A DNA stretch of 64,000 bases, taken from IMG/VR virus record IMGVR_UViG_3300045988_102159, positions 64,001 to 128,000 of that record, one strand, 5' to 3'. This document shows positions 4,283 through 37,487 of this stretch, one piece after another (within the stretch, counting starts at the first letter, position 1; each line of letters opens with the position of its first letter). Position numbers and translations under genes: made by a program. A model generated the notes under the pieces. It had not been told where the DNA came from. It saw only the letters and a list, made by a program, of their open reading frames with translations, and searched no databases. The DNA is from a virus.

Positions 4283-7200
4283 CTATTGAGCAGTAGATGT
4301 TATAACTCTATGACTACCAGCAGTAGATGTATTAATAATATCAACAACTGTTGTGTCTGCGTCTCCGCCCTTATGCCCAACAACTTTAATAGTACCATAG
4401 GCAAAAGTATGAGTGTGGTTCTTATCAATTTTGCTATTAGCAGTAGCTTGCGCAGCATTAGCCGCAGCATGTGCCGCATTTGCTTTTGCTCTAGCATCAT
4501 TTACATCAGACTTGCGGGCATTTACTTCATTGTTAATCTGTGTTTGCAGATTATTTAACAAATCATAAATACAACCTAGGTGGTCTGAAACCTTAGTTGA
4601 AGTTCTATTAGCACCCATACAATTATGTGAATAAGCATTGTTATAACAATATTCATTACTATAATTCCAACCACTGATACTACGTATATCTCGTTCAGCA
4701 GTAAGTGATGTAGTTGATTGTGAATCAGGCGTACCTGTGAATACACCCCAGTTTGAAACAACACCATGACCAATGCTAACATAAGTTCGTTTACCGACAT
4801 GCGGTACTTCATCATAATTAGACTGAATGGTACCAGTACCAGACCTAATATAGAAAGCACCATTGCCACCAGACTGTGGAATAAGACTAATGCTTACACC
4901 ACCTTGCGCTTCGTTGTCTTTAATAGCGGTAGCAACTAATTTAATGCCATCAGGTGAAGTATCACTTACGATATTTACACCATTATTTTCAGCATTGAAT
5001 TTAAGACCTTCGCCAACAAGTGTAGTATTCTGTCCTTTATTGTTATTCAATGTCAAAACAGCTTTGGCATTGTTTGCGCCAATAGTAAAAGTACCATCTT
5101 CATTATTTGCAACAGAAGAGAAAGCCTTTGAATACATTAAATAGTCTTCGCCAGCTTTAATTTGGAAATCTTTATCTGCAATATTCGTAATCGAATTTGT
5201 TGCATTGAGTCTTAGATTGCCACCAATTGCATAAGTATAATTTCCATCTTCATCTGTCTTATCATCTTTTGGAGTACCAATAGCAGAAAGAGTAAAATCA
5301 CCAGTAGACATGGTAGTTTTTCTGTCTTTTGGATTCATAAACTCAAAATTATTATTAAGATATAAAACAGATGTCTTAGTCTTTTCATCTGTTATATCAT
5401 CTGCCGCAGATAAAGCAGATAATCTTAAATAAGAATTTTCGTGACCAATAATAGCCTGCTCTGAATCTATATGAATCCTATGCGTTGAACTATCCGCAGA
5501 CTCTTTGCCCAAATCTGGCGCATAAAGGTTAACGTATTTACCATAGACGTTGAAACCTCTTGGATATTCATTATTGGTACCTGTACCAGTAGAAAGATAA
5601 AGGTCTGTACTAGCTTTTTCAGAATTCTTAACTGTACCATCAACAAAGAATTTAAATAGATTAGTATTAGACCAACCAAACTGCGCACCAATATATTTGT
5701 TATCAGCAGCGCTTTTTCCAAAGGCACCAATCTTACCAATGCCCATTGAAGAATCTTGGTCTTGAATGGCATTAGTATAAAATTGCCCGAAAGCGTTAAT
5801 ACCTACAAGAGGATATCTATCCCATTCACCTTTTTCATTTTTATAGTGCCTAAAAATAGAAAATGTAGACGCCTTTGCTGGGTCAATTTCAACTTCAAGG
5901 CTATCTCCTTCTTTAAGAGCGCAATTTGCACCTGTAAAATCAATACCACTAGACTTCCCAAAAAGTGGCTTGCCTTTTACAGAAATATATGCTGGATTAG
6001 CACCAAGAATCAGACCTTGCTGATTATGTGGAACAGCAAATTGAGAACCAACAACTTTTCTCTTATCGGTATATCCTCCAACAAGAACAGATGGGCCATC
6101 AAAAACTTGGTTGCCATTTTCATCTACTTCGTTCTGTTCTGTTCTTGCAATATTATATAATGCGCGAGAACCGATTCTCCATGCGCCAATATAACTTTCG
6201 CCACCTGGAACTAGTTTAATGCGGCCTTCCTCAAAATGATTATTCTGCGATGCCTGCTGCTCTGGCAAACCAAAAGTAGCTGAACCATCTTTAGCATCTA
6301 AGAAAATAGACTGCTTACCTTCTGAGAACCCCATTAAACCAATTTGAGATTCATCTGAATCATAAGTCTTTGAAGTTCCCATTACAACGCCAGTGAATTG
6401 ATTGTTCTTATTCTTTTCACCAGCGCCAATTTGCGGCGCAAGGATGTAATTTTCATCTTCATTGATTTCTAGGTGCGTTCCATCCCAGTCATTCAAAGAT
6501 TTAAGACCATAAGTATTCAGTGACATATAGATAGGAATATATAGCTCAACAACAGGATTAGCCGCATCTGCTGACGTATAAACTTTACAATGAACTAAAT
6601 TATTTCCATACTCACCATCATACACGTCATTTGGAAGAATATAGATTTGACTTAATCCTTTTGTGCGAACTGTCTTTTGCACACCATCTGACGTATTCTT
6701 TTCTGTAATAATCTTAAAGCAAGCACTTAATGGATTCTCGTCATATATTTGACTAGTTTTTGAAGGCTCGCCGCCCTCAGCTATCCATTCAATAAATAAA
6801 TCTTCAATGTCAGAGCCAATAAGCGTAACACCTTGATTCTTGTTATATAGCGGATTACGTCCATCTGCGTTATAAGTAATAGACTTTAAAAGAGAAGTTT
6901 TGTCAATTTGAATATCAGTATCTGCGTATTTCTTAATTACTGGAATGCCATAAAAAGCATAATACTTATATGAAGAATCTCCAACGGTATAAGTCGTTTG
7001 AGCCTTAACGATTTGGTTCATAAACTTCCGCTTATCCGCATCGGTCGCATTCCAAGAGACAACGCCATCATTACAACTCATATATTTGCTTTGACCGTAG
7101 CCCATAGACCAATAGACAGCAGAATCGTCATTGATTTTCTCATTGCGCTGATAGAGCTGAAATTGCAAAACTTGTTGCGAGATTGCTTGCCCTGTATTCC

Positions 7201-9543: not shown

Positions 9544-12500
9544 TTATCTAAACTTATAGGCGTATTGAATTGCTCTATCGTTCAGAGACATAAGCGCAGA
9601 TTCGATTTCTGCTGCATTGTTCGCAGCTGGGAATTCAGCTGTGATATGTACGTTTTGGTCAATTGTCTCAGATGCGTTATTTGCTTTCGCGCCATTTACC
9701 GCTCCAAGAGCAGTAGAAAGTGATTGCGCAAGACTTGTAGATTTAAGTTTGTCCGCAAAAGACCTTACGGATTCAACTGCTGCAAGAATATTTTGCGTAT
9801 CTGTAGCATTAAGGACAAGTTCTTTTTGATGTAGGAATGCAAGTTTACCATTCTTAGCATCCGCTGTCTTGTCAGACCAAGAACCTGTGTAGCCGCCTGT
9901 ATCATATCCGATTAGATTCTTTGAGCTATATTTCATAGAACCGTAATCAACAAGTTTACCAGACCTAGAATATTGGTCGATAATATCCTGAACGTGGCGG
10001 GCAAAAGCGGTACCGTATGCGCCAGTCAGCTTGCTGGAACGTACAGGGTCATTGCCCCAGCCAGAAGCCCAGCCATAAGTCCAAATCGCCTTAGCAATGC
10101 CCCAAGCAGTATCTTCATTGGCGCCAGCTCCACCGCCGCCACCGCCAGATGAAGGACCGTTAGCGTTACCATAGTGTTCATAATTATAGTTCTTTTGCTC
10201 AGCCTGCTTTAGAGCTTCACTTAGATTAGCATTTTCTTGCTCTTTCTTGGCCAGCTTATTAGCAGTTTCATCAGCGAGTTGCTTGAATGCCTGCATATTG
10301 TTGTTAGCATCTGTAATACGATTGGCGTAATCAGTCATCGTAGATTCGGTCTTTTTGACTTCACCAGATACATCTTTAAGAATGTTAATAAATTCTTTTG
10401 TGCTGTCCGCAAGTTCTTTTGTCTTATCCGTTGTGCCGCTGATACTATTGGAAATATCATCAAAGTTAGTCTTGGCTATGTCTGCGATAGTCTTTGTACC
10501 ATCCGCATAATCTTTACCAGCTTGCGTCAAATCACCAAGCATCTTATCAGTGTCGGCTTTGAACTGGTCCATATTCTGTAACCAAGAGGTCAAAGAAGTA
10601 GACCAACGTGTATCAATCTGGTCAAAAGCATCGGTACTACCATTAACAATCTGGTCGTATACGTCTTGTAGATTATCTTTGTTCTCGCCAGTAAGCATAT
10701 CGCACATGCCGATGAAATCATTGATAATGTTCTTCTGGGATGTGCTTAGCTGTTCACTGGTTCCAGCGAGATATTCTTTGAGTGAGTCAATGATGGCCTG
10801 CGTTCTCTTAGTCTTCTCTTCAAGAGACAGATTAGCATTGTTCCAAATGTCATTGACTGTAGACTGGGCATCCTGTAGAGCAGACAGTGAATCCGCCTGA
10901 GTTTGCTTCATCTGGTCTTTAGACATATTGTATGCGTTGTTCTGTGCATCTAGAAGGTCAGACTGCGCGGAACGGACATTATCATCATTCGCTGTATAGA
11001 CATATGAATAGTTACCCTGAGTATCCCTGCGAAGTTTCATTTGAGACTTATTGCGCTGGGCTTCTTCAAGTGCAATTTGCTTCTGTAAGATTTCAAGCTG
11101 TGCATTTGCATAGTTTACATCATATTCAGATAGCTTAGTCTTATCACGCAGATATTCAAGCTGTTCTTTCATCTGTGCTGAAATCTTTTGCTGGATAGCC
11201 AAATCATTTGAACCATCCAAGAGGTCAAGATACTTGCTCTGTAGCTTTTGGATGTTATAGGATTTATTAACGTCATCGAGATAGTAATCAGCGTTGCGAT
11301 TGATTAGCTCCCACTGTGTATTCATCCAATCGAGGTCAGTGCCGACAGCTTTGGTTCCCCATGCTTTAGTAATCTTTGAAACTGTATTTGAATACTGCTT
11401 TTGTAGATTCTCTAAGGAGTTTTGAATAAGGTCATTAATGTCAGAAGTAGCATCTTTAATCTTGTCAGATACTTCATTCCACTCTTCCGAACCTTCTTTC
11501 ATGGAGCCAAGCATATCTTTCCAAATATCACGTTGCTGCATTAACTCATTCAACTGTGCTTTGTAATTATTCTGCTGCGCGCCAAGGATGGTATTTAAAT
11601 CATCGTAAGACTCTTCGCCATGTAGAAGTTCTGTAATATCTAACCAATGTTCAAGTTCATCTGTGATAGCTTCATACTGGTCTTTACGTCTATCCATCTT
11701 ATCGCTAATATCATCAATCATATCCATAACATTGTCATGGAGACTTTCAATTAATGACCAATAGTCCTGAGCAAGTCCTGCGGCCTGTTCATATACTGTC
11801 TTAGCCACGTCATAGAGGTCTGCGGAATTCTCACCGAAAATATCAGATTTACCAGTCTCTTCAAACTGCTTCATCTGAGCGTTAATATCAGTTAGATTCT
11901 TCATAGACATATCGAAATAACCAGTGCCGTAGTAGTCTACACTCTTGTCACCATTGAGCGCACGCTGTTTGGCAGCTTTAAGTTCCTCTACGCGGCCTGC
12001 TGACCATTTCTTGTATGCGTCAGATGCGCCTTTAGCATTTGCAGCATCCTCTTGCTTCTTGATAAGATTATCGTAGTATTCGTCAACGCTCATTGTTGCA
12101 ACATCAAAATATTTGCCGAGTTTGGCAACATTATCTGCTGCTTCTTGATAAGGCGTTAGCTGAATACCGCGATTGAACGCACGGTCGAAATCAACTAGAC
12201 TTTCTTGAATATCTTTAAGATTATCAAGCGATTCAATTTGAGTCTTTAATACGTTGATACGCAGGTCTTCAATTTCATCATTGAGGTCTTCAATTTGCTG
12301 GATTGTATCTCTTAAATCACTTGAAATCAAAGTGTCATAACGCTGATATAAAGTCTTAAATTTATCAAGGTTATCATTAGCCGCGTCAATTTGGTCATTA
12401 ATAGCATCTTGAGCTTCTTCTGTACCAGCCGCATTATATTGGTTAATAAGATTATTAACATTATCAATTAATCCTTGATGAATCTTTGCATAGTTAGAAA

Positions 12501-15500
12501 TATAACCTTCATCATCAAATTGAATACCATATCCAGATAATTTAGATTGCAGTTCATTCATTTCATCATTCTGGATACTTAACTTTTCTTTCTGTAAGTC
12601 AATTTGACGTTTTAAAAGTGAAGTCTGCTTAGAAAGATTCTCAACTAATTTATCACCAGTTAAGCGTTCCTGCTCTTTATTGATACGTTCATAGTCATTT
12701 GCGATTGCTTCAAGAAGTGTATTAACACGTTCATAACGGTCAATTTCATCATCAAGAGCTTCTTTAGTATCAGGAGTGAAGGAGCCACCGCCACCTCCAC
12801 CACCGCCGCCACCTCCGCCGCCTGAGCCAGACGAAGGAAATCCAAAGTTTGACGGTGGCACAGCGCCACCAACACCAGAAGGCGCCCAATCTTTAATGCT
12901 AGGAGTTGAAGACCCAAATAGTGAGCTTAGACCCTTTGCAAGTTGCTTAGAATGTTCTTTAATAGATGCTTGCGAACCTGTAGTAGCATTTGACCAAGTA
13001 GATTTGCCAGTAAATTTATTAACGTATTCTTCTTGAACAATTCCGTCAGCAGTAGTTCTTGTTTTACCAGTAGAAGTAAGATTCTTATTTCTGCTTGCAG
13101 CAGAACCATTAGAAGTAGAGTTATTGGTTCCTTTGATGTGCATCTTAAAGTTTGGAACAGTAATGGTACCTACTTTGTCTGTACCTTTTCCATCCTCGGT
13201 AGACTTAATATCATAGGTAGAAGCTGTAACTTCTTCTGTACTACTGCTAACGTCACCATCAATGCCACCAAACATAGCCATAATATCAGAAATAATACCT
13301 GATATGCCATCTGCCATATTTGAAACTGCGCCTTCGGCTTCTGCCATTGTTCCTTGCATCGCCGCACCAGCAACTTCACTATTGGACATCATAGCTTTTG
13401 CTAAGCCCTGTCCTGTAGTAAGCATGGTATATGCTTGGTCAAGTGTCATTGCTCCAGTAGACGCAATTGAAGCAGCTGTGTTTTTCGCGGCATCGGTATT
13501 TGTCTGATAAAAAGTTGTCATTGAACTAGCTAAGCCAGAAATGGTATCAGCATATTGCTCTTTAATGCCACCCATTTCATTTGTTGCGCTAGTAGCTACT
13601 TTACCAGTATCCTCAAATACTTCATTAATTTTTTCAAAATTGTCTGTAACAAAATTATTAAAATCAGCAGCAGCATCAAGATTTTTCATGCTCTTGGCTA
13701 GTTTATTAATTTGTTTGGCGGCATCTCTCTGCTTTTTTGACATACCAGCAGTAACATTGCTAATATCCCTAGAATTCTTAATTTGCTCAACTTGTTCATC
13801 AGTTAAACCACTAGTTGCCTGTTCCATTTTAATAGATTGCTGTGCAGCTTTTTTCATTGTATTGGAATACTGAGTAACATTCATTTTGCCACTCTTGAAC
13901 TGCTTATTAGCTTGCTGCAAGCCAGTATACAGTTCATTTGTCATAATCTGAGCAAAATTAGAAATATCATCATCGTTTAATACGTCAGCAAGTTTCTGAC
14001 CGCTGTTAACAGCGTTATCAATTTTGCTTGCTAAAGTATCAAAACCAGAATTTAACCTATCTAAGAAATCTGTGTTTGAAATAGCGCCATTAGTAAGTAA
14101 GTCATTAAGTTGTTGTATTTCTTGAAGTGGTTGTTGTAAATCAAGATTATTATTAGAAAGGTTCTGGTATGCCGCAAGAATGTCTGTATTCGCTTGAGAC
14201 ATATTAATGGCTTCGCCAGTTGCTTCTTTCATCGCAGCGGTCTGTTCACGTGTTTTTTGTGTCCACTGTTCAACCGCACGCTGATTCAGCTGATATTGGT
14301 CGCCAACCTTTTGCAAGAATTCAACATACCCTGGATGTTCTACCATAATATTAGCGGCTTCATCTTCTGTAAAACCACCGTTCTTTTGGTAAGCAGTTTG
14401 ATAGTCTTCAAGAACGTCTTTCATTGAAGACTTGCTCTTGACCGCACTCTCTAGGTTATCTGTTGAAATATCAGAACTTAATCCTGCCATAACAGAATTT
14501 TTAACATCGTCCTTGCCACCTTGCATAGCAGAAACGAGTCCGTCGATATATTCTTGTCCAGCTTCTTTTCCAAGAGACTGATATTTAGCTTTAATAGCTT
14601 CATTATCTAGAAGAGAATCTTCAATTTCTTTCTTAGATTTATTAACAAAATCACTCTTATTCAATCCGTCTTCTGCGGCACTAGCCATATTGTCAATAAT
14701 GGTTTTTGCATTAGCAATATTTTCGTCATTTAAGTAATCCTGAGCATCAGAAACATGTTGTTTTGCTTCATCTAGCTTTGACTTTGTATGTTCATACATA
14801 ACATCGTCTTTGCTCATGCTATTAAGTTTTTTCTGATACTTATCTACTTCTTTTTGAGCTTTAGCAGATGCTTCTGTAACATTACCGATTTTCTCTTGGA
14901 TAGATAATCCGCTAGTATCTTGACCAATCCAATTTGTAGTTAAACCAGCCTGATTGCTTAAAAAGTCATTCTCAAATGCAATTCTAGCGGCATTATTAAC
15001 AAAAGGCGTATAAGTAGAAGCTCCTTTATCTAGTGCAGTTAAAGCTTGCTTACCTTGTGACGCGGCTAATTCTTTAGATGCCGTACTAGCTTTACTAATT
15101 TTTTCGGCTAAAGTATCAAAGTCTCCTGAATTTTCAAGCGCCTTACCACCCGCGATGTCAAGAGAATCAATTAGATTATCAGTAGCACTCTTTAATTCAT
15201 CAGTAACTTCCCCAGTTTGCTTATACGAAGCATATGCCGCATCAAAGGAAGAGGTATCAACAGATGCCATCTGTTGAGTATTTGTATATGTCTCAACTTG
15301 TTTGTCTCTTTCAGCTTGATTTTTTTGATGAAGAAAATTGAGCAAAGCGCCACCAGCGGTAGCGATTCCAATAGTTGCCATACCAAGAGGACTACTTAAA
15401 CCTTCGATAAGCGCTTTAAATACTTGAAGACCAGCAGATGCAATTTTTGCTCCTGCACCAAAAGCCTTAAACTTAATAGTAGTTGCTGTAAGTCCATTCG

Positions 15501-17373
15501 CAAAAGAGCCAAGTTGCATTGAATCTAATGCTGTTTGCATTTTTGCAACTTCATTTGTTTTAATGGATGCAAAAAGGTTTCCAAAATCTAACTTTGATGC
15601 TTCTTTAAGCTCAATAAAACTAGAAATCAACTGTGGAACAGTCATAGAAAGATTCATTATAGTCTGTTCAACTTTTTCTCCAGTAGTTAAATCAGCATTT
15701 GCCCATATAGAACCTAAGTTTTGGAAAGATTGCCAAGCAAAACTAAGTTGCCCAATAGCAGCTGTAGCTTGAACAATATTTTGTACGTCCATTTGCTTTT
15801 TCAGCGTATCTTCAAGACCTTCGTTTTGACCTATAACTCCTCCAAGTACAGCATGTGCGCCAGTAACTTTTTGATTTTTACGGGTCAAATCGCCAGCTGA
15901 ACCTACAGCAACACGACTTTTAACTGATGGATTATTTGCTTTATCTAAAGCCCCTTCTGCTGTTTGGTAAACTTCATTCAAATATTCTTGAAGTTCATCT
16001 ATTAAACCTAAACCTTCACCTAAATTATCAGAATTTAAACCATTCTTTTTACCATTAGCAAGTATTGAAAGTTGACGTAATACTTTAATAACTTTATAAA
16101 TCGGCTGTAAACATTCAGTAGCTTGTTCATCTAACACTGCAAAAATAGAATCTTTTCCTGCAATATTAGTTTCAGTTATACCGTAGGCTTTAAGTAACTT
16201 TTTAGTATCATTATATATAATTCGTAAGCTTGACCGACCATCTGTAGCAATTTTTGTATTGTCAGAATCAGCACCAAGTGCAGCAATTTTATCACGATGT
16301 TTTGGAATGGTTACTGAACTAATACCAGAAGATTCATTTGCAATTCCTTGGAGTCTTTGCTTTGCTTCGTTGGAAGAAATATTTTTATATAAATCTTCTC
16401 TGCCAGCATTTACATTGTTATAATACTCTTGAGTACCTCTTGCTTGAAGGACTCCATTTTCGTCTCTTAAAAGCTGAATATATTCTTTATATTCACCAGT
16501 TGCCGCGCCAATAGCCATATTAGTTTCATTAACGGATTCACGAAGTTTGGCTTCTGCATCAGTAACGCCATTAATTGCGTGGCTTGTGTCAATAAGTAGT
16601 TTATTATATTGTGTTTGCTGTTCATTGCTCATGACTGATTGGTAATTTGTTCCAACATCAATCATATTTTTCAACGGGTCTAAAGACTTATCGTCAATCT
16701 TTTGATAACCCATTGCGTTAAGTTTTTCTTTTCTTACTTTGGCATTATTTTCTTTAATCTGCCCAAGTGAGAAATTCTGTGCCATCGCTGTTAAACCATG
16801 TGCTATCTGTTTACTAAATACTCTTGAAGCAGTAGCACCAAACAAAGTTAGTGCGGCAGAACCGCCACCAATAGAATCTATCAATTTCTGCATTAAATCT
16901 AATGCAGTAGATAATCCATCAATGAATCCATAAAAATCAGAAGAATTGCCAAGACTATTGATAATACCTTCAAAAGTAGTCTGTAATTTATTTAATTTTC
17001 CTTGTAATGAATCAACATACTTTTCATTCATTACATCTAGCGTACCGCTAGCATTTTCAGAACCAGCCTTATATTGATTATATAAGTCTGAACGATTCAT
17101 CAATGCTTCAAAACGTGTAAGCTGGAATTTACCAGCAAGCGTTTGACCTACGGCAGCTTTTTGCGTAGCATCAATAGAATCCCAAACTTTCATAAGGTCT
17201 TCCATGATGTTACCAACACCACGCATCTTTCCATCGCCGTCTGTGACTTGTACACCAATTTTCTCTAATGTGGATGTGACTTTTCCTAAGTCTACTCCGT
17301 CGTCTAGAGTCTTACCCATTGATAGGTCTGAAAAGCGTGCATAAAGTGTCTTTAATCCATTACCGATTTGTTC
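9544..17373 (-). CDS. Tape measure protein, exon 2 (2609 codons)
   Basis: Comprises the 2591-aa ORF plus 18 in-frame codons upstream of its first Met (EQIGNGLKTLYARFSDLS-MGKT...). These continue the TP901-type TMP core begun in exon 1. The C-terminal GYDTGGYTGSW...GKLAFLHQKELVLN pattern is typical of Firmicutes siphophage TMPs. A 13xGly tract lies at 12784-12822. Confidence 0.8.
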   Translation of the reverse strand, partial: EQIGNGLKTLYARFSDLSMGKTLDDGVDLGKVTSTLEKIGVQVTDGDGKMRGVGNIMEDLMKVWDSIDATQKAAVGQTLAGKFQLTRFEALMNRSDLYNQYKAGSENASGTLDVMNEKYVDSLQGKLNKLQTTFEGIINSLGNSSDFYGFIDGLSTALDLMQKLIDSIGGGSAALTLFGATASRVFSKQIAHGLTAMAQNFSLGQIKENNAKVRKEKLNAMGYQKIDDKSLDPLKNMIDVGTNYQSVMSNEQQTQYNKLLIDTSHAINGVTDAEAKLRESVNETNMAIGAATGEYKEYIQLLRDENGVLQARGTQEYYNNVNAGREDLYKNISSNEAKQRLQGIANESSGISSVTIPKHRDKIAALGADSDNTKIATDGRSSLRIIYNDTKKLLKAYGITETNIAGKDSIFAVLDEQATECLQPIYKVIKVLRQLSILANGKKNGLNSDNLGEGLGLIDELQEYLNEVYQTAEGALDKANNPSVKSRVAVGSAGDLTRKNQKVTGAHAVLGGVIGQNEGLEDTLKKQMDVQNIVQATAAIGQLSFAWQSFQNLGSIWANADLTTGEKVEQTIMNLSMTVPQLISSFIELKEASKLDFGNLFASIKTNEVAKMQTALDSMQLGSFANGLTATTIKFKAFGAGAKIASAGLQVFKALIEGLSSPLGMATIGIATAGGALLNFLHQKNQAERDKQVETYTNTQQMASVDTSSFDAAYASYKQTGEVTDELKSATDNLIDSLDIAGGKALENSGDFDTLAEKISKASTASKELAASQGKQALTALDKGASTYTPFVNNAARIAFENDFLSNQAGLTTNWIGQDTSGLSIQEKIGNVTEASAKAQKEVDKYQKKLNSMSKDDVMYEHTKSKLDEAKQHVSDAQDYLNDENIANAKTIIDNMASAAEDGLNKSDFVNKSKKEIEDSLLDNEAIKAKYQSLGKEAGQEYIDGLVSAMQGGKDDVKNSVMAGLSSDISTDNLESAVKSKSSMKDVLEDYQTAYQKNGGFTEDEAANIMVEHPGYVEFLQKVGDQYQLNQRAVEQWTQKTREQTAAMKEATGEAINMSQANTDILAAYQNLSNNNLDLQQPLQEIQQLNDLLTNGAISNTDFLDRLNSGFDTLASKIDNAVNSGQKLADVLNDDDISNFAQIMTNELYTGLQQANKQFKSGKMNVTQYSNTMKKAAQQSIKMEQATSGLTDEQVEQIKNSRDISNVTAGMSKKQRDAAKQINKLAKSMKNLDAAADFNNFVTDNFEKINEVFEDTGKVATSATNEMGGIKEQYADTISGLASSMTTFYQTNTDAAKNTAASIASTGAMTLDQAYTMLTTGQGLAKAMMSNSEVAGAAMQGTMAEAEGAVSNMADGISGIISDIMAMFGGIDGDVSSSTEEVTASTYDIKSTEDGKGTDKVGTITVPNFKMHIKGTNNSTSNGSAASRNKNLTSTGKTRTTADGIVQEEYVNKFTGKSTWSNATTGSQASIKEHSKQLAKGLSSLFGSSTPSIKDWAPSGVGGAVPPSNFGFPSSGSGGGGGGGGGGGGGSFTPDTKEALDDEIDRYERVNTLLEAIANDYERINKEQERLTGDKLVENLSKQTSLLKRQIDLQKEKLSIQNDEMNELQSKLSGYGIQFDDEGYISNYAKIHQGLIDNVNNLINQYNAAGTEEAQDAINDQIDAANDNLDKFKTLYQRYDTLISSDLRDTIQQIEDLNDEIEDLRINVLKTQIESLDNLKDIQESLVDFDRAFNRGIQLTPYQEAADNVAKLGKYFDVATMSVDEYYDNLIKKQEDAANAKGASDAYKKWSAGRVEELKAAKQRALNGDKSVDYYGTGYFDMSMKNLTDINAQMKQFEETGKSDIFGENSADLYDVAKTVYEQAAGLAQDYWSLIESLHDNVMDMIDDISDKMDRRKDQYEAITDELEHWLDITELLHGEESYDDLNTILGAQQNNYKAQLNELMQQRDIWKDMLGSMKEGSEEWNEVSDKIKDATSDINDLIQNSLENLQKQYSNTVSKITKAWGTKAVGTDLDWMNTQWELINRNADYYLDDVNKSYNIQKLQSKYLDLLDGSNDLAIQQKISAQMKEQLEYLRDKTKLSEYDVNYANAQLEILQKQIALEEAQRNKSQMKLRRDTQGNYSYVYTANDDNVRSAQSDLLDAQNNAYNMSKDQMKQTQADSLSALQDAQSTVNDIWNNANLSLEEKTKRTQAIIDSLKEYLAGTSEQLSTSQKNIINDFIGMCDMLTGENKDNLQDVYDQIVNGSTDAFDQIDTRWSTSLTSWLQNMDQFKADTDKMLGDLTQAGKDYADGTKTIADIAKTNFDDISNSISGTTDKTKELADSTKEFINILKDVSGEVKKTESTMTDYANRITDANNNMQAFKQLADETANKLAKKEQENANLSEALKQAEQKNYNYEHYGNANGPSSGGGGGGAGANEDTAWGIAKAIWTYGWASGWGNDPVRSSKLTGAYGTAFARHVQDIIDQYSRSGKLVDYGSMKYSSKNLIGYDTGGYTGSWSDKTADAKNGKLAFLHQKELVLNATDTQNILAAVESVRSFADKLKSTSLAQSLSTALGAVNGAKANNASETIDQNVHITAEFPAANNAAEIESALMSLNDRAIQYAYKFR

Positions 17374-17739
17374 CTTGTGTCTTAAACTCGGTCGTTAATC
17401 GAGTCCATATATAAATCCTATATGCTTCTCGTTTCCAAGAAGAAGAGACTATATTTTCTATAAAAATAGAACATTCTTTCGGATAGACTTCTATCCTATC
17501 AGAGCCAATCCTGATAGTCGTTGAACCTTTTACTAAATAGCAAAGTGGCTGCGGATTATCCAATTTTTATATCTTTTTACTATACCTAAGACATTACTCT
17601 TCGCCAATATTATATCACTATAATATTTTAGTAATATAAAACTCTAAGGATTTTCCCGCAATTTAATATTTTTCTTATAATTTAAATTATAAGCCCAATA
17701 TTTTCACTTATATATTTTAAGCAACAAGTAAAATCTTTT
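17374..17739 (-). mobile_element. Group I intron in tape measure gene (~366 nt, no ORF of note)
   Basis: Minus strand carries AAUUGCGGGAAA (rc 17653-17663), CCGCAGCC, GUUCAACGACUA (rc 17515-17526) and AAUAUAGUCUC. A G precedes exon 2 (GAACAAAUC). The 5' junction was chosen after GCCCCU. A P1 helix AAGCCC/GGGCUU is visible, but its register leaves +/-2 nt of doubt. Confidence 0.8.
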
Positions 17740-18708
17740 AGGGGCTTCTCGCGTAACGGATTCAATTGTCGCAATCTGGGCGTTTAATTGGTCTGTAGAA
17801 ACTCCAAGCGTAGCTGCCGCTGATGCAGCTTTCTGGGATGCTTCTGCCAACTCTCCAACATCCGCAGCAGAAATATTTGCTACGTTAGCCCAAGAGTCTA
17901 GTGCAGCATTAAGTTTATCAATATTATTATCAAGACCATAAGCATTCATGTATGCTGTGATTTGGTCCGACGTTGTAGCAGTGTCTTGTTGAGAGGCATT
18001 AGCTAATTTAGTTGACATCTCCGCAAGCTGCTGAGATTTGTTTAGGTCAAAACCTTGCTGGCCGAAGATAAGGGTACTATTCGTCATAGCAACAGTTGTA
18101 GAGCCAAGAGCCTTTGCAGCTTCATTAGCCTGCTTAGCATACTGAACCATCGAGTCACGTGAATAGTCAGTAACAAGCATAATTTGTGTCAGCGAATCAT
18201 CAAGGTCTTTTGCATATTCAACAGATTGACGAATAGAATCAGTAACGCCGTTAAAGGCGCTTGACATAATACCCCAACGGACTGTGTTGCCCATTGTGTT
18301 AAATAATTTATCTACCATTGAGCTGGTACTTTTGATACCAGTATCAATTTTACCCAATTGAGCAAGAACGTCTGTAAAGGCAATTTTACCAGTAGACTCT
18401 GCCATAGAAAATGAATTTTGCAGATTACGTAATGAAAGTCCACTCTCATTTAGCTGGCTAGTCAACTTTGTCATATCGAGCATTCCAATTTTAGTGTTAA
18501 AGCTCGAATTTAATGCTTTCTGAAATTTTTGAATATTGTTGATAGCCGCAGAAGCTTGCGTATTATCAATAATATCCCGAGACTGCATTTCCTTTAGCTG
18601 AACAGAAACTTTATTAAGCTCAGTCTGTAATTGAGTCAAACCAGAACGGTCTAATGTAGTTCGTAGATTATACTCAATAGTATTTGAATATTTACTAATG
18701 GTAATCAC
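17740..18708 (-). CDS. Tape measure protein, exon 1 (323 codons, GTG start)
   Basis: The ORF 17704-18708 makes sense up to ...IATIESVTREAP and then runs into intron sequence (KRFYLLLKIYK*). Coiled-coil N-terminus and TMP core motifs are present. The start is GTG 18708, preceded by a 13-codon uORF that holds the strong RBS. Confidence 0.75.
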
Positions 18709-21524: not shown

Positions 21525-21781
21525 CATTATGTTATCTTATAGTTTCCTATAAGTTCAGACTATATCTTCACCTCTAATAATAGAGGGTTTTCCACTTCGC
21601 TTTGTTATAAAGCTACTCCATAAAGGATAGTCGTTGAACGTACTCGTTCGCTGCTGATTACCAGTTAAGGCTTCCAGCAATTCAAAAAAGATTTTACAAC
21701 GCATCGCTGCGCAGGTACCCGAACATCACTTTAAAAGACTACTAACAGACCAATTAAAGACTAATAGCAGACATTCTAGAC
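21525..21781 (-). mobile_element. Group I intron D of major tail gene (257 nt)
   Basis: P1 GUACCU/GGGUAC with U.G at the splice site. Also GAAUUGCUGGAAGCC, GUUCAACGACUA (rc 21628-21639), AGAUAUAGUCU (rc 21557-21568) and a terminal G. Confidence 0.85.
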
Positions 21782-22431
21782 AGGTACTTGGATCGCCATT
21801 GTTCGCCATAGAGAACGTAAAGTTACTCTGGATTTTACCACGAGGAATGACGAATTCGGCAGGAAGGTCTACGCCAGTCTCTTCATCACGGAAAAGTGTA
21901 GACGCTTCAATGTAATAGTAACCAGCGAAGTTCTCAGCATCAATCTGCATCTCATAGGCTTCATCGTAATGAACCTCATAGCAGTCAATGCGGACGGTAT
22001 CGCCAGCCTTTACAGCGGCATCTTGCTTGCTATCGCCGGGTTCATCGGCGGCAAGCTGGAAAGCGATAGTTTTACCTTCGGCTTGAATCTCACCATGATC
22101 GCCAAGGGTGGCGGCAGCTAGGGTCTTGCCATCATTGATAACAAAGACCTGCTTGTCGGTGACAGCAGAAAGGTAATTAGCTTGAGCACCAGCACTATCA
22201 AGAGTAACAGGATAGATAGGAGCTTCTTTTGTAACGATGATAGTCGCGCCATTGCGGTCTTCATCGGTTAACTTGGCGATAATCTTATCGCCAGAGGTTT
22301 CGGCAACCATATCATATGTAGCATGGACATAGATAGGAGTCTTATTTTCACCAGTTTTCTTACCGTGTACTAGACCAGCACCAGACAGCATAGCGAAACT
22401 GGTAGGACTCATTAGAGAGTCTTCAAGAGTG
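21782..22431 (-). CDS. Major tail (tube-like) protein, exon 4
   Basis: Corresponds to track ORF 21726-22412 plus in-frame upstream codons (..TLEDSL-MSPTSF...). The sense ends at ANNGDPST, and the ORF tail CLECLLLVFNW... is intron. An alternative 5' boundary is 22439. Confidence 0.75.
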
Positions 22432-22658
22432 CTTTTTAAACATATATACTTTCATATATAAACAGACTATATCTTATCTTTCGATTTTCTCACTTCCTTG
22501 CTTACAGCAAGTACACCTATACAGGTTAGTCGTTGAACCATTTTATTTGGCTGCGGATTGTCTAATTCTTATGGATTATTACTATAAAATAGTACCATAA
22601 AACTCTAAAGAGGTTCCCGCAATTCAAGAAATTTAATGACCCCCACATTTGTTAATTA
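22432..22658 (-). mobile_element. Group I intron C of major tail gene (~227 nt)
   Basis: P1 UGACCCU/GGGGUCA with U.G. Also AAUUGCGGGAAC, CCGCAGCC, GUUCAACGACUA (rc 22527-22538) and AGAUAUAGUCU (rc 22464-22475). Confidence 0.85.
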
Positions 22659-22679
22659 AGGGTCAGAGTCTTTTCACCA
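22659..22679 (-). CDS. Major tail protein, micro-exon 3 (~19-21 nt, GEKTLT)
   Basis: GGUGAAAAGACUCUGACCCU lies between the 3' end of intron B and the P1 of intron C. The frame from GGU through exons 4 and 5 is exactly 292 codons. The 5' boundary is uncertain (22676-22679). Confidence 0.6.
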
Positions 22680-22911
22680 CATTTGTATTATCTGTATCTT
22701 TATATATACATACAGCTTAGACTATATCTTTATTCTTTTAGAATATCTTGCACTTCGGATTGTAGCATCCTACACCTTAAAGGTTAGTCGTTGAACTTTA
22801 CTAAAAGTCTTAGCTGCGGATTCCCCTCGAAAGGGCTTTCCCGCAATTCACAAAATTTATTTCATTCTTAATGGTATACAAGCATTAAGCGGCCTGAGCA
22901 GTGAAGAAACT
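22680..22911 (-). mobile_element. Group I intron B of major tail gene (~230 nt, boundaries +/-6 nt)
   Basis: Contains AAUUGCGGGAAAGCC, CCGCAGCU, GUUCAACGACUA (rc 22785-22796) and AGAUAUAGUCU (rc 22709-22720). I could not draw a convincing P1 with a U.G pair, so both junctions are approximate. Confidence 0.75.
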
Positions 22912-22935
22912 TTCCCAGGCGATTAGACGAGGATT
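22912..22935 (-). CDS. Major tail protein, micro-exon 2 (~24-30 nt, NPRLIAWE..)
   Basis: AAUCCUCGUCUAAUCGCCUGGGAA starts directly after the omega-G of intron A (22936). It continues exon 1 in frame (..YAQGGKG-NPRLIAWE). The 3' boundary is uncertain (22906-22912). Confidence 0.6.
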
Positions 22936-23676
22936 CATAATATTCTAAATAGGTCGTTACTCTATTTATTGTTTACACAACTATATATTGCTATATAGAT
23001 TAGACTATATCTTATGCTAGATTACTAACATTTTCCTATTTCAAGCTACTTAGCTTTACTTCCTTGCGGAATAGTCGTTGAACTTTATTGAGTTATCCAC
23101 CTATAACCTCCTGTAGTATGACGTTTACCGCTACAAACAAGGCTAATTTTGCTAACACTACAACCTGTCTGACGATGCGCTTCTGACATACTTTTAAATT
23201 CACCAATAACATTTCCATTTAAATCAAGTTGGTAAACAGGAATCTCTGGATAACTTCCACTATTTACTTTATGCTGAACATAGCTATCATTCTTTTGACG
23301 AATAACCCAACGTAAATTTGTCAAATTATTGTCATCTCGAATTTCGTTTATATGATGACATTCCTCTCCTTCTAATGGAGGGCGAAGAAAAGTCTCAAGA
23401 ACCAAACGATGAATACGCCAATGTTTATAAGTGTTATTCTCTGTATTATATAACTTTACATACTGGTATCCATCTTTGTCATATTGAGGTTTCAACATAC
23501 GTTTAGTTGAAACAGTTCTAATTTCACCATGTTCATTTACCTCATAATAAGGAAAATCTTTTACAACTTTCCACATAAATAGCGCTCCAATCTTAGATGC
23601 TGATTGTCTTATAATACTTATATTATATCATAAGAGTTTCCAGCAGTCAAGGAAATTTTACAAGAGCAATCTATTT
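22936..23676 (-). mobile_element. Group I intron A of major tail gene (741 nt) carrying an HNH homing endonuclease ORF
   Basis: P1 AAGGGU/GCUCUU with U.G. Also UUGACUGCUGGAAAC, CAAUCAGCAUC, then the ORF, then GUUCAACGACUA (rc 23072-23083), AGAUAUAGUCU (rc 23002-23012) and a terminal G at 22936. Confidence 0.85.
23085..23576 (-). CDS. Intron-encoded HNH homing endonuclease (163 aa)
   Basis: N-terminal NUMOD4-like W..V.DFPYYEV...G.I motif, an H-N-H core (HRLVLETF...CHHINEIRDDNNLTNLRW) and a C-terminal HTH-like tail. Located inside the ribozyme core between the P6 and P7 elements. Confidence 0.8.
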   Translation of the reverse strand: MWKVVKDFPYYEVNEHGEIRTVSTKRMLKPQYDKDGYQYVKLYNTENNTYKHWRIHRLVLETFLRPPLEGEECHHINEIRDDNNLTNLRWVIRQKNDSYVQHKVNSGSYPEIPVYQLDLNGNVIGEFKSMSEAHRQTGCSVSKISLVCSGKRHTTGGYRWITQ

Positions 23677-33956: not shown

Positions 33957-35378
33957 CTAATGCTTCGTAAAGAACATGAATCCACTTAAATCTCTGGAAT
34001 TGCGGCGATTTCGCCTATCCTCTTGGCGTTTACACCAATAGAGTCCATAGATTAGAGCAGACACTTTATCCTTTAGAATCTTTCTATTGGATTGTTTCAG
34101 AATGATATTTGCACCTTCATTATCTTGTACGAGATTTGCCATCTGTGATTTCAAAATATCAGTGGCAACATATGGCCGCAAATAATCTTGACGCTGTAAC
34201 GGAGTCATTTTCTTTCCTTGCGCTTGCTGCAATAGCTTATTCTTAGCAGTATTAGAGTCAATTAAGAACTTTAACTTGCCGTTGCGTAATTGTGTTTGTG
34301 TATAAGAATATAACTCTGTATTCATTGGAGCATTTGCTTTCATCATCCAAATTGCATTCTTGATTGTATTCTCATTCTCGAACGATTTATAGTTCTTGCG
34401 GTCTTGCTCGTTAGGAATATCGTCTAGATTGATAATACCCATGTTAGGAAGAAGCTCGTCTGTTTCTGGGTCGTTCTGGTCTGTAATTAAGTAATCAAGA
34501 AGTCCAATGCCTAATCCGTTCGCGTCTAAAACGATGGCTTCGCACTTGAACGCATTAAAGAGCTGCTTAATCTTAATTGCTTGATATTCAAAGTGAGATT
34601 CAGATAAAGTGAAGATGTTCACTATCTTCTTATCGTTGACACCTGTTGTTCTTGCAGGAGAAGATTCAATGATTACAATTTCTGTAGGGCAGTTAAGACG
34701 GCCTACGTCTACGCCCATAACGTAAAATGTATCTTTATTTTGTCCCTTGTCGTATCCATTCTTGGCGAGATTGATAATCCTGTGTTTGTCAAACTTATTC
34801 ATATCGAAGAAAGCACCGTCTAAAGTTCCGCTCCAGACTGAGCCGTATTCCCGTTCAAAGCCAATCTCGTCCATCGAATTGCCTGTCTCTTGGGCTTGAA
34901 TATAGTTCGCTGGTTGTAACCCTTCGACTACAGGTACTCTCCAGTCGCCTCCTAGAATGAAAGCATCGTATCCATTGCTAGATACCATGCGACACAGCGC
35001 GTCAATTAGTTTGTCGTAAGCGTAAGTACCTTTGAATCCGGCGCTTGTGACGTAGATGTCGTTCTGGTTCAGTGTCTCGTCTGGGTCTACCTTACCATTG
35101 ACTTTTCTAGAAATTACAAGCATAGGCGCAATGATTTCTTCGTACTTTTGCTGGTCTGTAATGGTCGCTACCTCTTCTGTAAGTACTGCTTGAGCACGGA
35201 AACCACGAGAACCAGAAGTCATGCTTACGTTCTTTATCGTACTTCCGTTGCGGAAACTGTAAGTTACTTCGTCTTTCGATTGACTTGTCTTTGCCAAAGT
35301 TCCTCGTGTGTCCCAAACAATTTCTCTAGCGAGTCCGGGGATTAACTTACATATTTCCTGCATCTTTGATTGCAGAAT
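33957..35378 (-). CDS. terL: Terminase large subunit, exon 2 (473 codons)
   Basis: RNaseH-like nuclease pattern (VMGVDVGR..., IVLDANGLGIG...). The ORF's leading Met is probably intron/exon junction sequence. The 5' boundary is proposed at 35378. Confidence 0.8.
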   Translation of the reverse strand: MLQSKMQEICKLIPGLAREIVWDTRGTLAKTSQSKDEVTYSFRNGSTIKNVSMTSGSRGFRAQAVLTEEVATITDQQKYEEIIAPMLVISRKVNGKVDPDETLNQNDIYVTSAGFKGTYAYDKLIDALCRMVSSNGYDAFILGGDWRVPVVEGLQPANYIQAQETGNSMDEIGFEREYGSVWSGTLDGAFFDMNKFDKHRIINLAKNGYDKGQNKDTFYVMGVDVGRLNCPTEIVIIESSPARTTGVNDKKIVNIFTLSESHFEYQAIKIKQLFNAFKCEAIVLDANGLGIGLLDYLITDQNDPETDELLPNMGIINLDDIPNEQDRKNYKSFENENTIKNAIWMMKANAPMNTELYSYTQTQLRNGKLKFLIDSNTAKNKLLQQAQGKKMTPLQRQDYLRPYVATDILKSQMANLVQDNEGANIILKQSNRKILKDKVSALIYGLYWCKRQEDRRNRRNSRDLSGFMFFTKH

Positions 35379-35584
35379 CATAGCTGATTCATAAAATTAT
35401 AGACTATATCATTTTCTCCGAAGAGAAACTTTCCGCTTCGCCGCATAAGCAGCTACTCCCTTTTAGGATAGTCGTTGAACTTATAAATTAGATGCTGATT
35501 GCCAATAGATGGTGTCCCAGCAGTTCAAAAAGTTAGTTTTTCAAGGTATCGCTACCAAGCAGGACAATCAATTCGTCCTTTTGC
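35379..35584 (-). mobile_element. Group I intron in terL (~206 nt, boundaries +/-15 nt)
   Basis: Contains GAACUGCUGGGACACC, CAAUCAGCAUC, GUUCAACGACUA (rc 35469-35480) and GAUAUAGUCU (rc 35401-35410). Proposed P1 is GCAGAU/GU(C)CUGC with U.G, and omega-G is at 35379. Confidence 0.8.
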
Positions 35585-35923
35585 ATCTGCTACTGTAATC
35601 AAAGTTGAACCAGGATAAAGAATTGCCTTAACCATGAGAGACAAAACAGCCATAAAGGATTTAGAAAATCCTCGACTAAATACTTCATAAACAGTCCTAT
35701 ATCGCATATTAATGCGAAGAATCATACGCTGAGTTGGATAAAATTGAAATTTATTATTAGGGTTGAGTGAAGCCATATAATCCACAAACTTATCTGGATA
35801 CATACGCCAATAGGCAATGATACGTTGATATTTATCTAGATTATCTTCAATCTTCTTTGGGTCAATCTCGGCAACGCTTTTCTTATCATGTGCCGCAATT
35901 TTCAATAAATTACTCAACGCCAT
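35585..35923 (-). CDS. terL: Terminase large subunit, exon 1 (113 codons)
   Basis: ATG 35923 overlaps the stop of the upstream gene (AUGGCGUUGAGUAA). Walker-A-like VFSRGFSKSF motif. The track ORF 35552-36049 runs on into the intron (..AKGRIDCPAW*). Confidence 0.75.
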
Positions 35924-37424
35924 ATTGCTCTGCCAATCTCTTAGCTTCTTCTTCACGTTCCTCAATCTGGAACTGCTGGAAGTCCGCAGCTTCTTCATCA
36001 GTGATCGCATTATCTTCATCGGTCTTGATGCCCTCTGCGATAATTTCATCTACACTCTTGGTCTTATTCTCTTCAAGTTTCTTGATATAAGATTCGATAA
36101 GATTTCCTAGACCAAGCTCGTTCTTAACTAGATTGTCTGTATAGTTCTTCATATCATTGATGATAAAATCAATCTTATCTTGCGGCACATTGATTGGGTC
36201 ATCTTGTCTTGGGATAATACCACCCTTGGACTCTACGAACGCAACAAGCTCTCCAATCGAGTCAATGTCTCTCTTCTTCTCTTCCTGCTTCTGAGAATCG
36301 GTGAATTTGCCTGACTTACGCAACATATCATTGGCTCCCTGTAAGTCTTTAAAGGTCTTAATGTCACCTACATCTAAGGCTTGATTCATCTTTAGGTCTG
36401 TCTTACAGATATTCTTTAATACCTGTTCACGGTCTGTAGACAACTCATAGTCTGCCGCATACTTCTGATATAGTTCTTCCATCTTAACCCACTCAGATGG
36501 CTTATAGAGAAGACCCCATTTAAGAGAAAGATATTTAATATCATCTTCTGTAAGGCTTTCTGTAATCTGCGCTTCATCAATACGCGCAACATCTGGGATA
36601 AATTCATTCTGCATTTCGCCAGTAATGTCTAATGGCGCATTATTGATATTTTCTACAGGGTTCACACCAAGAGAAGAAGCAACATCAGGTATGAGGTCAA
36701 GCACTTGCGGCTCAGGCTCTTCTGTTTCTTTTGGTTGCTCTTTTTTCTTCTCCTTTTCAGCTTTCTTGGCTAAAAATTCCTGCTCAACATCTTTTGCCGC
36801 GCTGATAACATCTTCATTCTTTTTTATTTCTTCTGAACTAACTGTATTTTCAGGAACTTCAAGTTCTTTCTTATCAAGTACGCTGTCAGGATTGCTAGCA
36901 ACCTCTTCCTCGCCTTGCCGCATCTTCTCATTGATACGGTCTAAGACACTTTTGCGACTCATGGTATTGTATTCAGCTTGTGAAATCTCGCCAGCTTTAA
37001 GACTTTCCAAGAGTCTGTTCTCAAACTCTTCATCATATGATGTGCCTTTGATGTTCTGTTGCTCTTTCCTAGCTTGCTGGAATTTCTCATTATTAATTCG
37101 CTCAGAATCCGCATACGTTAGATTCTTATATTGTTCCATATTCATAGTGCGAAGATATGTGCCGATAACCGACATAGGACCAAATGTGGCAGGGTTTTTC
37201 ATATAGCTTTTATTTGCTAATTCAACCCATTTCTTCTCAACATACGGCACGTCCATCTTCTTTAAAATCCATTTGAATGTATCTGGACGGCGATTGTCAA
37301 TATACATCGTTAGGCAAGTCTTACAAAGGTCACATCTTTCATCTTTATTAGGTATCTTATAGAAATCTGTTTCCTTTTTTGTCTTGCCGCATTTCGCGCA
37401 TGTTTTCATAGGTACGTCTGCCAT
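35910..37424 (-). CDS. Packaging-module protein with N-terminal zinc ribbon (504 aa), terminase small subunit candidate
   Basis: Start moved to ATG 37424 (AAGGAG RBS). Carries CAKCGKTKKETDFY...CDLCKTC and a long acidic/coiled middle region. Sits immediately upstream of terL. Confidence 0.5.
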   Translation of the reverse strand: MADVPMKTCAKCGKTKKETDFYKIPNKDERCDLCKTCLTMYIDNRRPDTFKWILKKMDVPYVEKKWVELANKSYMKNPATFGPMSVIGTYLRTMNMEQYKNLTYADSERINNEKFQQARKEQQNIKGTSYDEEFENRLLESLKAGEISQAEYNTMSRKSVLDRINEKMRQGEEEVASNPDSVLDKKELEVPENTVSSEEIKKNEDVISAAKDVEQEFLAKKAEKEKKKEQPKETEEPEPQVLDLIPDVASSLGVNPVENINNAPLDITGEMQNEFIPDVARIDEAQITESLTEDDIKYLSLKWGLLYKPSEWVKMEELYQKYAADYELSTDREQVLKNICKTDLKMNQALDVGDIKTFKDLQGANDMLRKSGKFTDSQKQEEKKRDIDSIGELVAFVESKGGIIPRQDDPINVPQDKIDFIINDMKNYTDNLVKNELGLGNLIESYIKKLEENKTKSVDEIIAEGIKTDEDNAITDEEAADFQQFQIEEREEEAKRLAEQYGVE

Positions 37425-37487
37425 AAGTCTCCTTTCTATACAAGAAACCCACTCCATCCAAGAGAAGGAAGAAGTGGGTCAGTAATA

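Follow-up and report, generated by a model that had tools for sequence, protein, structure and literature searches.

The window analysed here (64,000 nucleotides; positions 64,001 to 128,000 of the IMG/VR virus record IMGVR_UViG_3300045988_102159) contains two neighbouring ORFs on the minus strand, 18708..17704 and 17319..9544, with the appearance of a phage tape measure protein (TMP) gene cut in two. What is the DNA between them, and if it is spliced out, at which 5' splice site? The initial annotation had proposed a group I intron inside a TP901-type TMP core, with a 5' splice site that was either non-canonical or wrongly aligned by hand. The phage (~140 kb, human gut) is known from metagenomes only, and no near-identical DNA was found among GenBank phages. 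A host search in bacterial genomes gave only two MAG matches of 53-55% identity (a Bacillales bacterium and an uncultured Clostridium sp.), and the host is probably a Firmicute.

The two open reading frames and their junction

ORF 18708..17704 (334 aa) ends in ...IATIESVTREAP followed by KRFYLLLKIYK*, the latter being read-through into the intron and the "nonsense" that had been noticed earlier; the -1 base of exon 1 is U17740. In the frame of ORF 17319..9544, the 18 codons preceding the Met at 17319 read EQIGNGLKTLYARFSDLS and do continue the TMP core, as had been claimed. Joining exon 1 (18708..17740) and exon 2 (17373..9544) in silico gives a 2932-aa protein. The PF10145 profile (PhageMin_Tail) matches exon 1 alone over positions 1-128 of 201 (54.5 bits), with the match stopping at the end of the ORF, whereas the spliced protein is matched contiguously over 1-201 of 201 (95.6 bits; cutoff 33.2). 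The spliced protein also matches TIGR01760 (tape_meas_TP901, NCBIfam) with 134.7 bits (cutoff 28.8), and the neighbouring structural ORFs have no matches in Pfam.

The spliced junction protein, ...ESVTREAP|EQIGNGLKTLYARF..., is common to uninterrupted homologues. In 268 GenBank phage records, one tblastn piece spans 80% or more of the junction region, and 34 uninterrupted metagenomic homologues align over the junction without a gap, with an invariant Glu directly after it; exact REAPEQIGNGLKTLYARF or ESVTREAPEQIGNGLKTLYARF is found in several uninterrupted homologues, and the homologue N-termini on the exon 1 side read MITISKYSNTIE. Because these 34 homologues align gap-free and several are identical, the junction is placed at REAP|EQIGNG, between the Pro and Glu codons. 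The comparison with TMP homologues that had been called for thus supports REAPEQIGNG and leads to the rejection of REAQQIGNG, which would drop one conserved residue. Removal of the intron in silico restores the host reading frame and the conserved protein sequence exactly. These results support that the two ORFs belong to one TP901-type TMP gene, split within its conserved core.

Boundaries, structure and class of the insert

The boundaries of the insert can be read from alleles that lack it. Seven IMG/VR contigs with 97% protein identity over the first 620 residues (98-99% over a 265-residue junction query) have no insert at the junction; their empty sites read GAAGCACCA|GAACAAATCGG (intron-less site sequence GAAGCACCAGAACAAATCGG). 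Since these alleles set the boundaries, the intron extends from 17739 to 17374, exon 1 ends at U17740 and the final base of the intron is G17374. G17374 directly precedes exon 2, as expected for omega-G. The four motifs named in the initial annotation (AAUUGCGGGAAA, CCGCAGCC, GUUCAACGACUA and AAUAUAGUC) all lie within this segment.

A covariance-model search, also suggested earlier, matched Rfam RF00028 (Intron_gpI) over its full length (model positions 1-253) at 17715..17425 with 41.2 bits; the E-value is 6e-9 locally and 4e-7 when the whole window is searched. This score falls below the gathering cutoff of 50 bits, and at the default gathering threshold the intron went unreported, although the same search of the window gave three other group I introns. 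The large insertions relative to the model correspond to an 86-nt extension of P5 and to P7.1/P7.2, and the P9.1/P9.2 tail lies outside the match. The consensus strings of P4, P6 and P7 are present in the alignment; for P7, GGUUCAACGACUA and AAUAUAGUC agree with the Rfam consensus. An explicit helix map of P1-P9.2, in which all pairs are standard, is given in Table 1. The conserved catalytic core (P3-P8, with P4-P6 and the P3/P7 pseudoknot) is predicted to be present in full.

Table 1. Positions of the tape measure exons, the intron and its predicted helices, and other group I matches in the window.
Feature	Position	Strand	Description
TMP exon 1	17740..18708	-	323 codons, GTG start at 18708, 3' end ...GAA GCC CCU
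Group I intron	17374..17739	-	366 nt, 28% GC, without homing endonuclease gene
TMP exon 2	9544..17373	-	2609 codons + stop, first codons GAA CAA AUC (EQI)
P1	17694..17742	-	5'-CCU/AA-3' 17742-17738 (slash, splice site) with guide 5'-UUGGG-3' 17698-17694
P1a hairpin	17702..17733	-	17733-17724/17711-17702, within expanded P1 loop, predicted fold
P2 hairpin	17674..17693	-	CUUAUAAU/AUUAUAAG, 8 bp, UUAA loop
Catalytic core	17447..17669	-	P3-P8, from standard pairs and the Rfam alignment
P3	17669-65/17475-71	-	helix map
P4	17660-55/17555-50	-	helix map
P5	17651-48/17561-58	-	86-nt extension 17647-17562
P6/P6a	17549-17525	-	helix map
P7	17519-15/17451-47	-	GACUA/UAGUC, 96% paired across relatives
P7.1	17514-11/17502-17499	-	helix map
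P7.2	17496-91/17486-81	-	6 of 6 pairs with changes on both sides
P8	17470-57	-	helix map
3' domain	17375..17442	-	P9, P9.1, P9.2 and 11-nt tail
P9	17442-36/17431-25	-	GAAA loop; five pairs changed on both sides
P9.1	17424-19/17411-06	-	helix map
P9.2	17404-00/17390-86	-	96% paired across relatives
Omega-G (terminal guanosine)	17374..17374	-	3' splice site, set by intron-less alleles
Group I match	21536-21767	-	RF00028, 76.1 bits
Group I match	22443-22668	-	RF00028, 61.0 bits
Group I match	22698-22916	-	RF00028, 80.1 bits
Group I match	22981-23235	-	RF00028, 41.0 bits
Homing endonuclease ORF	23085-23576	-	163 aa; NUMOD4, HNH_3, NUMOD1 and I-HmuI-like domains
Group I match	35382-35584	-	RF00028, 47.2 bits, just under cutoff

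The helix map is supported by covariation among 11 introns, namely the introns at the same TMP site (site 1) together with those of a crAss-like phage, Bacillus phage Internexus (gyrB) and Bacillus phage SBSphiJ5. In this alignment 81.6% of the cells are paired, compared with 35-44% when the partners are slid, and 35 pairs are changed on both sides, compared with 15-26 for slid partners; none of 500 shuffles reached the observed covariation score. The helices with compensatory changes include P3, P4, P6a and P7.2. Among the near-identical copies of the intron, 5 of the 7 distinct substitutions at paired positions keep the pairing. These results support the reading of the insert as a group I intron of subgroup IA, the subgroup following from the presence of P7.1 and P7.2, and its resemblance to published phage introns points to IA2 rather than IA1. 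The original proposal of a group I intron within the TP901-type core is thus borne out by the RF00028 match, the empty sites and the full helix map.

The 5' splice site and competing explanations

The oddity raised by the initial annotation was a P1 formed by AAGCCC/GGGCUU, which places a C-G pair at the 5' splice site. In this register cleavage would follow C17742, the terminal G would be G17373 and the product would be REAQQIGNG. The 6-bp helix is real (17747-17742/17696-17691), and taken alone it is more stable than the canonical P1 (-6.3 vs +0.6 kcal/mol), of which the exon side provides 3 bp only, a point against the splicing proposed here. Moreover, the REAQQIGNG product would be in frame, and exon 1 ends in GAAGCCCCT, which permits the AAGCCC pairing, in every copy of the intron family. 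This register, however, takes up the first three bases (CUU) of P2, and with a loop hairpin and P2 included it folds to -5.6 kcal/mol, compared with -15.2 kcal/mol for the local minimum-energy fold of the 5' region, which contains the canonical P1, a 10-bp P1a and an intact 8-bp P2. It also removes one residue of a motif that is gap-free in 34 of 34 uninterrupted homologues. The same codon boundary is occupied by more distant introns (L048-I1, 347 nt; L052, 228 nt; L047-I1, 216 nt; L050-I1, 232 nt; 69-91 bits against Rfam), and in L047 the shifted register has 4 contiguous pairs vs 7 of 8 for the canonical one, and in L052 and L050 it is no better. All 9 distinct site-1 introns keep CCU/GGG, with U(-1)-G1, two C-G pairs, a mismatch at -4 and a helix that continues into the intron. 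Finally, the -1 base is U in all intron-bearing alleles, whereas the closest intron-less alleles end in CCA, a difference that fits the need for a U-G wobble. A non-canonical 5' splice site is thus highly improbable: the helix described earlier exists but is not the functional register, and the alignment points to a canonical site with P1 formed by CCUAA/UUGGG and the wobble U17740-G17696. The alternative that had been offered, a junction 2 nt downstream after CCU, was right, and the apparent oddity arose from hand alignment, because a run of four C residues faces three G residues. The AAGCCC/GGGCUU helix nevertheless competes with P1 and P2 and could slow folding.

Could the insert instead be a decayed relic that no longer splices, leaving the TMP as two polypeptides (334 aa and ~2591 aa without splicing) or as a dead gene? 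Such decay would agree with the missing endonuclease gene, the Rfam score under the cutoff and a weak P10. Yet the core motifs, the P7 helix of the guanosine site, the U-G wobble and the terminal G are all intact, and copies in at least five independent contigs (23-147 kb) are 98% identical, with most substitutions keeping the pairing. A second polypeptide is also hard to reconcile with the locus: by inspection no Shine-Dalgarno-like sequence lies directly 5' of the ATG at 17319, this ATG sits 18 codons into the conserved domain, and two proteins parted at PF10145 position 128 of 201 would each hold only a piece of one domain. A relic is thus improbable. The chance that the insert is something else altogether (a group II intron, an insertion sequence or MITE, an intein or an assembly artefact) is vanishingly small. 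We found no point in favor of any of these; RF00028 is the only significant RNA family locally (the other three matches have E-values of 2.4 or more), an intein is ruled out because stop codons begin 12 codons in and the insert is untranslatable in frame, and an assembly artefact is ruled out because the same insert occupies the same site in several independent assemblies. It is very probable, on the sequence evidence, that the insert is a group I intron able to splice and thereby to join REAP to EQIGNG, and presumably a self-splicing one.

In the proposed reaction, P1 would arise in the late transcript by base pairing of CCU|AA with the internal guide UUGGG, and a free guanosine bound in P7 would attack 3' of U17740. 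G17374 would next occupy the guanosine site and the exons would be ligated to ...GAAGCCCCU-GAACAAAUC..., restoring the full-length TMP gene. The predicted ligated-exon junction is GAAGCCCCU|GAACAAAUCGG, i.e. GCCCCUGAACAA, in the canonical register, whereas the shifted register would give GCCCAACAA.

The P1 of the Rfam model (AUAAGU at 17711-17706 with GGGCUUAU) was rejected. Splicing after U17706 would leave KRFYLLLKIYK in the protein, and past the in-frame stop at 17397-17395 the frame is restored by no 3' site that ends in G; segment 17711-17706 forms the P1a hairpin instead.

P10 comprises 2 bp in the window intron and 6-8 bp in L048, L052 and L047, among which it shows compensatory changes (GAGAAU/AUUCUU vs GAACAA/UUGUUU). 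P10 is dispensable in some group I introns. It was also observed that UUGUU at 17723-17727, in the 5' strand of P1a, is complementary to AACAA at 17368-17372 in the 3' exon; in the L047 intron the aligned segment is the P10 strand (UUGUUU|GGG). UUGUU may represent either a displaced P10 or what is left of an earlier guide sequence.

Mobility, insertion sites and relation to known introns

Copies of the same intron (367 nt, 97.8-98.6% identical) occupy the same site in L046/L133, L135 and L071/L151. The L071 copy (4967-5333; also in L151) is 98.6% identical and also lacks an endonuclease gene, and the TMP proteins of L071 and the window share only 68% identity in exon 1 and 48% downstream. In the 30-nt exon bins adjacent to the intron, however, 30 of 30 and 29 of 30 positions are identical between the two, compared with 13-26 of 30 further out. 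This pattern reads as a classical co-conversion tract of ~30 nt, and the near-identical copy with its identical flanks suggests transfer of a non-autonomous intron between divergent phages, possibly with the help of an endonuclease acting in trans. A 1207-nt form of the same intron was found in L041 (1797-3003; also in L067 and L132), with a ribozyme 98.8% identical over nt 36-366 (L041/L132). Its P1 loop is 884 nt long and holds, at the position of P1a, a 271-aa LAGLIDADG ORF (1875-2690) that matches PF14528 (LAGLIDADG_3) with 29.3 bits (cutoff 22.5) and also has a matching N-terminal helix-turn-helix. The largest ORF in the window intron is 67 aa, and none of its ORFs has a match in Pfam. 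Because it lacks the endonuclease ORF that the L041 form carries, the window copy is regarded as a non-autonomous derivative. Presence/absence polymorphism among close relatives and co-conversion are both found, and it is most likely that the intron spread by homing and that the endonuclease gene was lost afterwards; of the two directions, loss is preferred over gain because it fits the usual cycle of invasion and decay. A scan for a dedicated promoter of the L041 endonuclease gene, of which the window copy might keep a remnant, gave 11 promoter-like sites vs 7.0 +/- 2.4 expected by chance, and no such promoter is claimed.

Most relatives have an uninterrupted TMP gene: of 62 IMG/VR loci, 55 are covered by a single piece (one of them shortened by the contig end) and 6 carry an interruption, and of 82 metagenome and MAG loci 66 are uninterrupted. 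The interruptions fall at several sites. Inserts of 302 to ~1445 nt lie at TMP residue 219/220 in L046 (~2700-2960), L108, L109 and L133-L136, the one in L046 matching RF00028 with 57 bits; the window is uninterrupted there. Further sites lie after REAP, after EQIG (+12 nt; L048, RF00028 50.7 bits) and after GNGL. Tandem insertions in L048 (1912-2533) and L047 (3467-3926) leave a 12-nt mini-exon between them (GAGAATATCGGT and GAACAAATTGGT); the second insertion in L047 has no significant RF00028 match and by eye resembles that of L048. In L050 (3470-4956) the mini-exon of the tandem pair is ~21 nt (ENIGNGL), and a DUF723/DUF2726 ORF lies within the second intron. A ~1.5-kb insert after EQIG, in the absence of the site-1 intron, is found in L043 (1494-2999; also L057 and L130), a relative with 95-96% protein identity; the insert matches RF00028 weakly (37.7 and 33.2 bits) and holds a 308-aa ORF with DUF723 and a treble-clef zinc finger. 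Judged from the ends of called ORFs, more intron sites probably lie after the U of UGG, before two Trp codons: many of the called ORFs of homologues P0020, P0029, P0035, P0038, P0040, P0072-P0075 and P0101-P0120 end exactly before Trp, at ...EDLMxV|W... or ...ALDS|W.... This makes at least five insertion positions in the TMP gene, with the two at Trp only probable, and three of them lie within ~21 nt, giving mini-exons of 12 to 21 nt. A wider reading, to which we give somewhat less than an even chance, is that the conserved TMP core of these ~140-kb gut and rumen phages attracts group I introns at unusually high density. The window intron would then have moved between TMPs only 48-68% identical, with co-conversion tracts of 30 nt or less, presumably through the LAGLIDADG enzyme of the 1207-nt form acting in trans, and the conserved AAGCCC/GGGCUU helix might serve as a switch of folding or regulation as well.

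Six RF00028 matches were found in the window, all on the minus strand and all in the structural module, of which the gathering threshold recovers three. Four of them lie within 1.7 kb (21536-23235), two being ~30 nt apart, which implies a mini-exon. ORF 21726-22412, flanked by clustered matches, matches "virion structural protein" genes of ~140-kb Enterococcus phages, and the homing endonuclease ORF overlaps the weak match at 22981-23235. The sixth match (35382-35584) lies between ORF 33957-35381 and ORFs 35552-36049 and 35910-37457; the flanking ORFs have no matches in Pfam, and, from its position, this match probably interrupts a further gene for structure or packaging. Gut phages of this lineage are thus intron-rich. 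Because default thresholds miss half of the matches, the TMP intron and two others, metagenomic phage genomes probably contain more introns in structural genes than are called, and those with long peripheral insertions in particular escape default Rfam settings.

Group I introns in TMP genes are a known kind, published in 2008 and 2023. TMP-IVS1, IVS2 and IVS3 of Bacillus cereus-group prophages, including lambdaBa01-like ones, belong to subgroups IA1/IA2 and occupy several alternative sites within one TMP gene; related introns are fitted to different sites via P1 and the guide, different introns occur at one site, and distinct phages carry copies whose endonuclease gene is incomplete or missing (Tourasse & Kolsto 2008; PMC2504315). 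The window intron is likewise a subgroup IA intron without an endonuclease gene in a phage TMP, but it comes from a ~140-kb human-gut phage lineage with different hosts and phages, and this lineage shows more sites, including tandem introns with 12-nt mini-exons. Plasmid pBWB404, through which the positions of IVS1-3 could have been compared, was not among the plasmid matches. The TMP of Vibrio phage ICP1 is also split by an intron, the spliced TMP having been seen by RNA-seq and RT-PCR; its endonuclease content varies by isolate, and the TMP has been termed a frequently interrupted gene (Barth et al. 2023; PMC10448857). The window TMP resembles that of ICP1 in being intron-split and in the varying endonuclease content among relatives. 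Unlike in ICP1, the window intron has no endonuclease gene, a LAGLIDADG gene is found in a longer relative, and splicing is predicted from sequence.

Nucleotides 77-227 of the window intron share 74-77% identity with many Staphylococcus, Bacillus, Enterococcus and Vibrio phage genomes. These relatives, among them Staphylococcus Silviavirus (DELF3) amidase/endolysin, Bacillus phage Internexus gyrB, Enterococcus phage VRE9_1 nrdD and crAss-like cr108_1, share the P3-P7 core and the long P5 extension, covary in P3-P9 and are mostly confirmed by RF00028 matches. They differ in their host genes (those annotated interrupt endolysin/amidase, gyrB or nrdD, or lie directly 5' of a primase gene) and in P1/P2 and the guides, and several have an endonuclease gene in other loops. 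The window intron thus reveals no new mechanism; it extends a known kind to an uncultured gut phage lineage, combines empty sites, endonuclease-plus and -minus forms and co-conversion tracts in one well-resolved case, and fits the established view of mobile introns as targeting the best-conserved region of essential phage genes. For annotation, both ORFs should be merged into a single TMP, since a tail length derived from the ORF fragments would be wrong.

A last observation concerns plasmids. Three TMP-like plasmid matches from Clostridium botulinum and Clostridioides difficile (H49, H50 and H53) start at query residues 117-125, and the intron site in this query is at residue 123/124. Judging from these match starts, the TMP-like genes on C. 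botulinum and C. difficile plasmids may be split at the same place.
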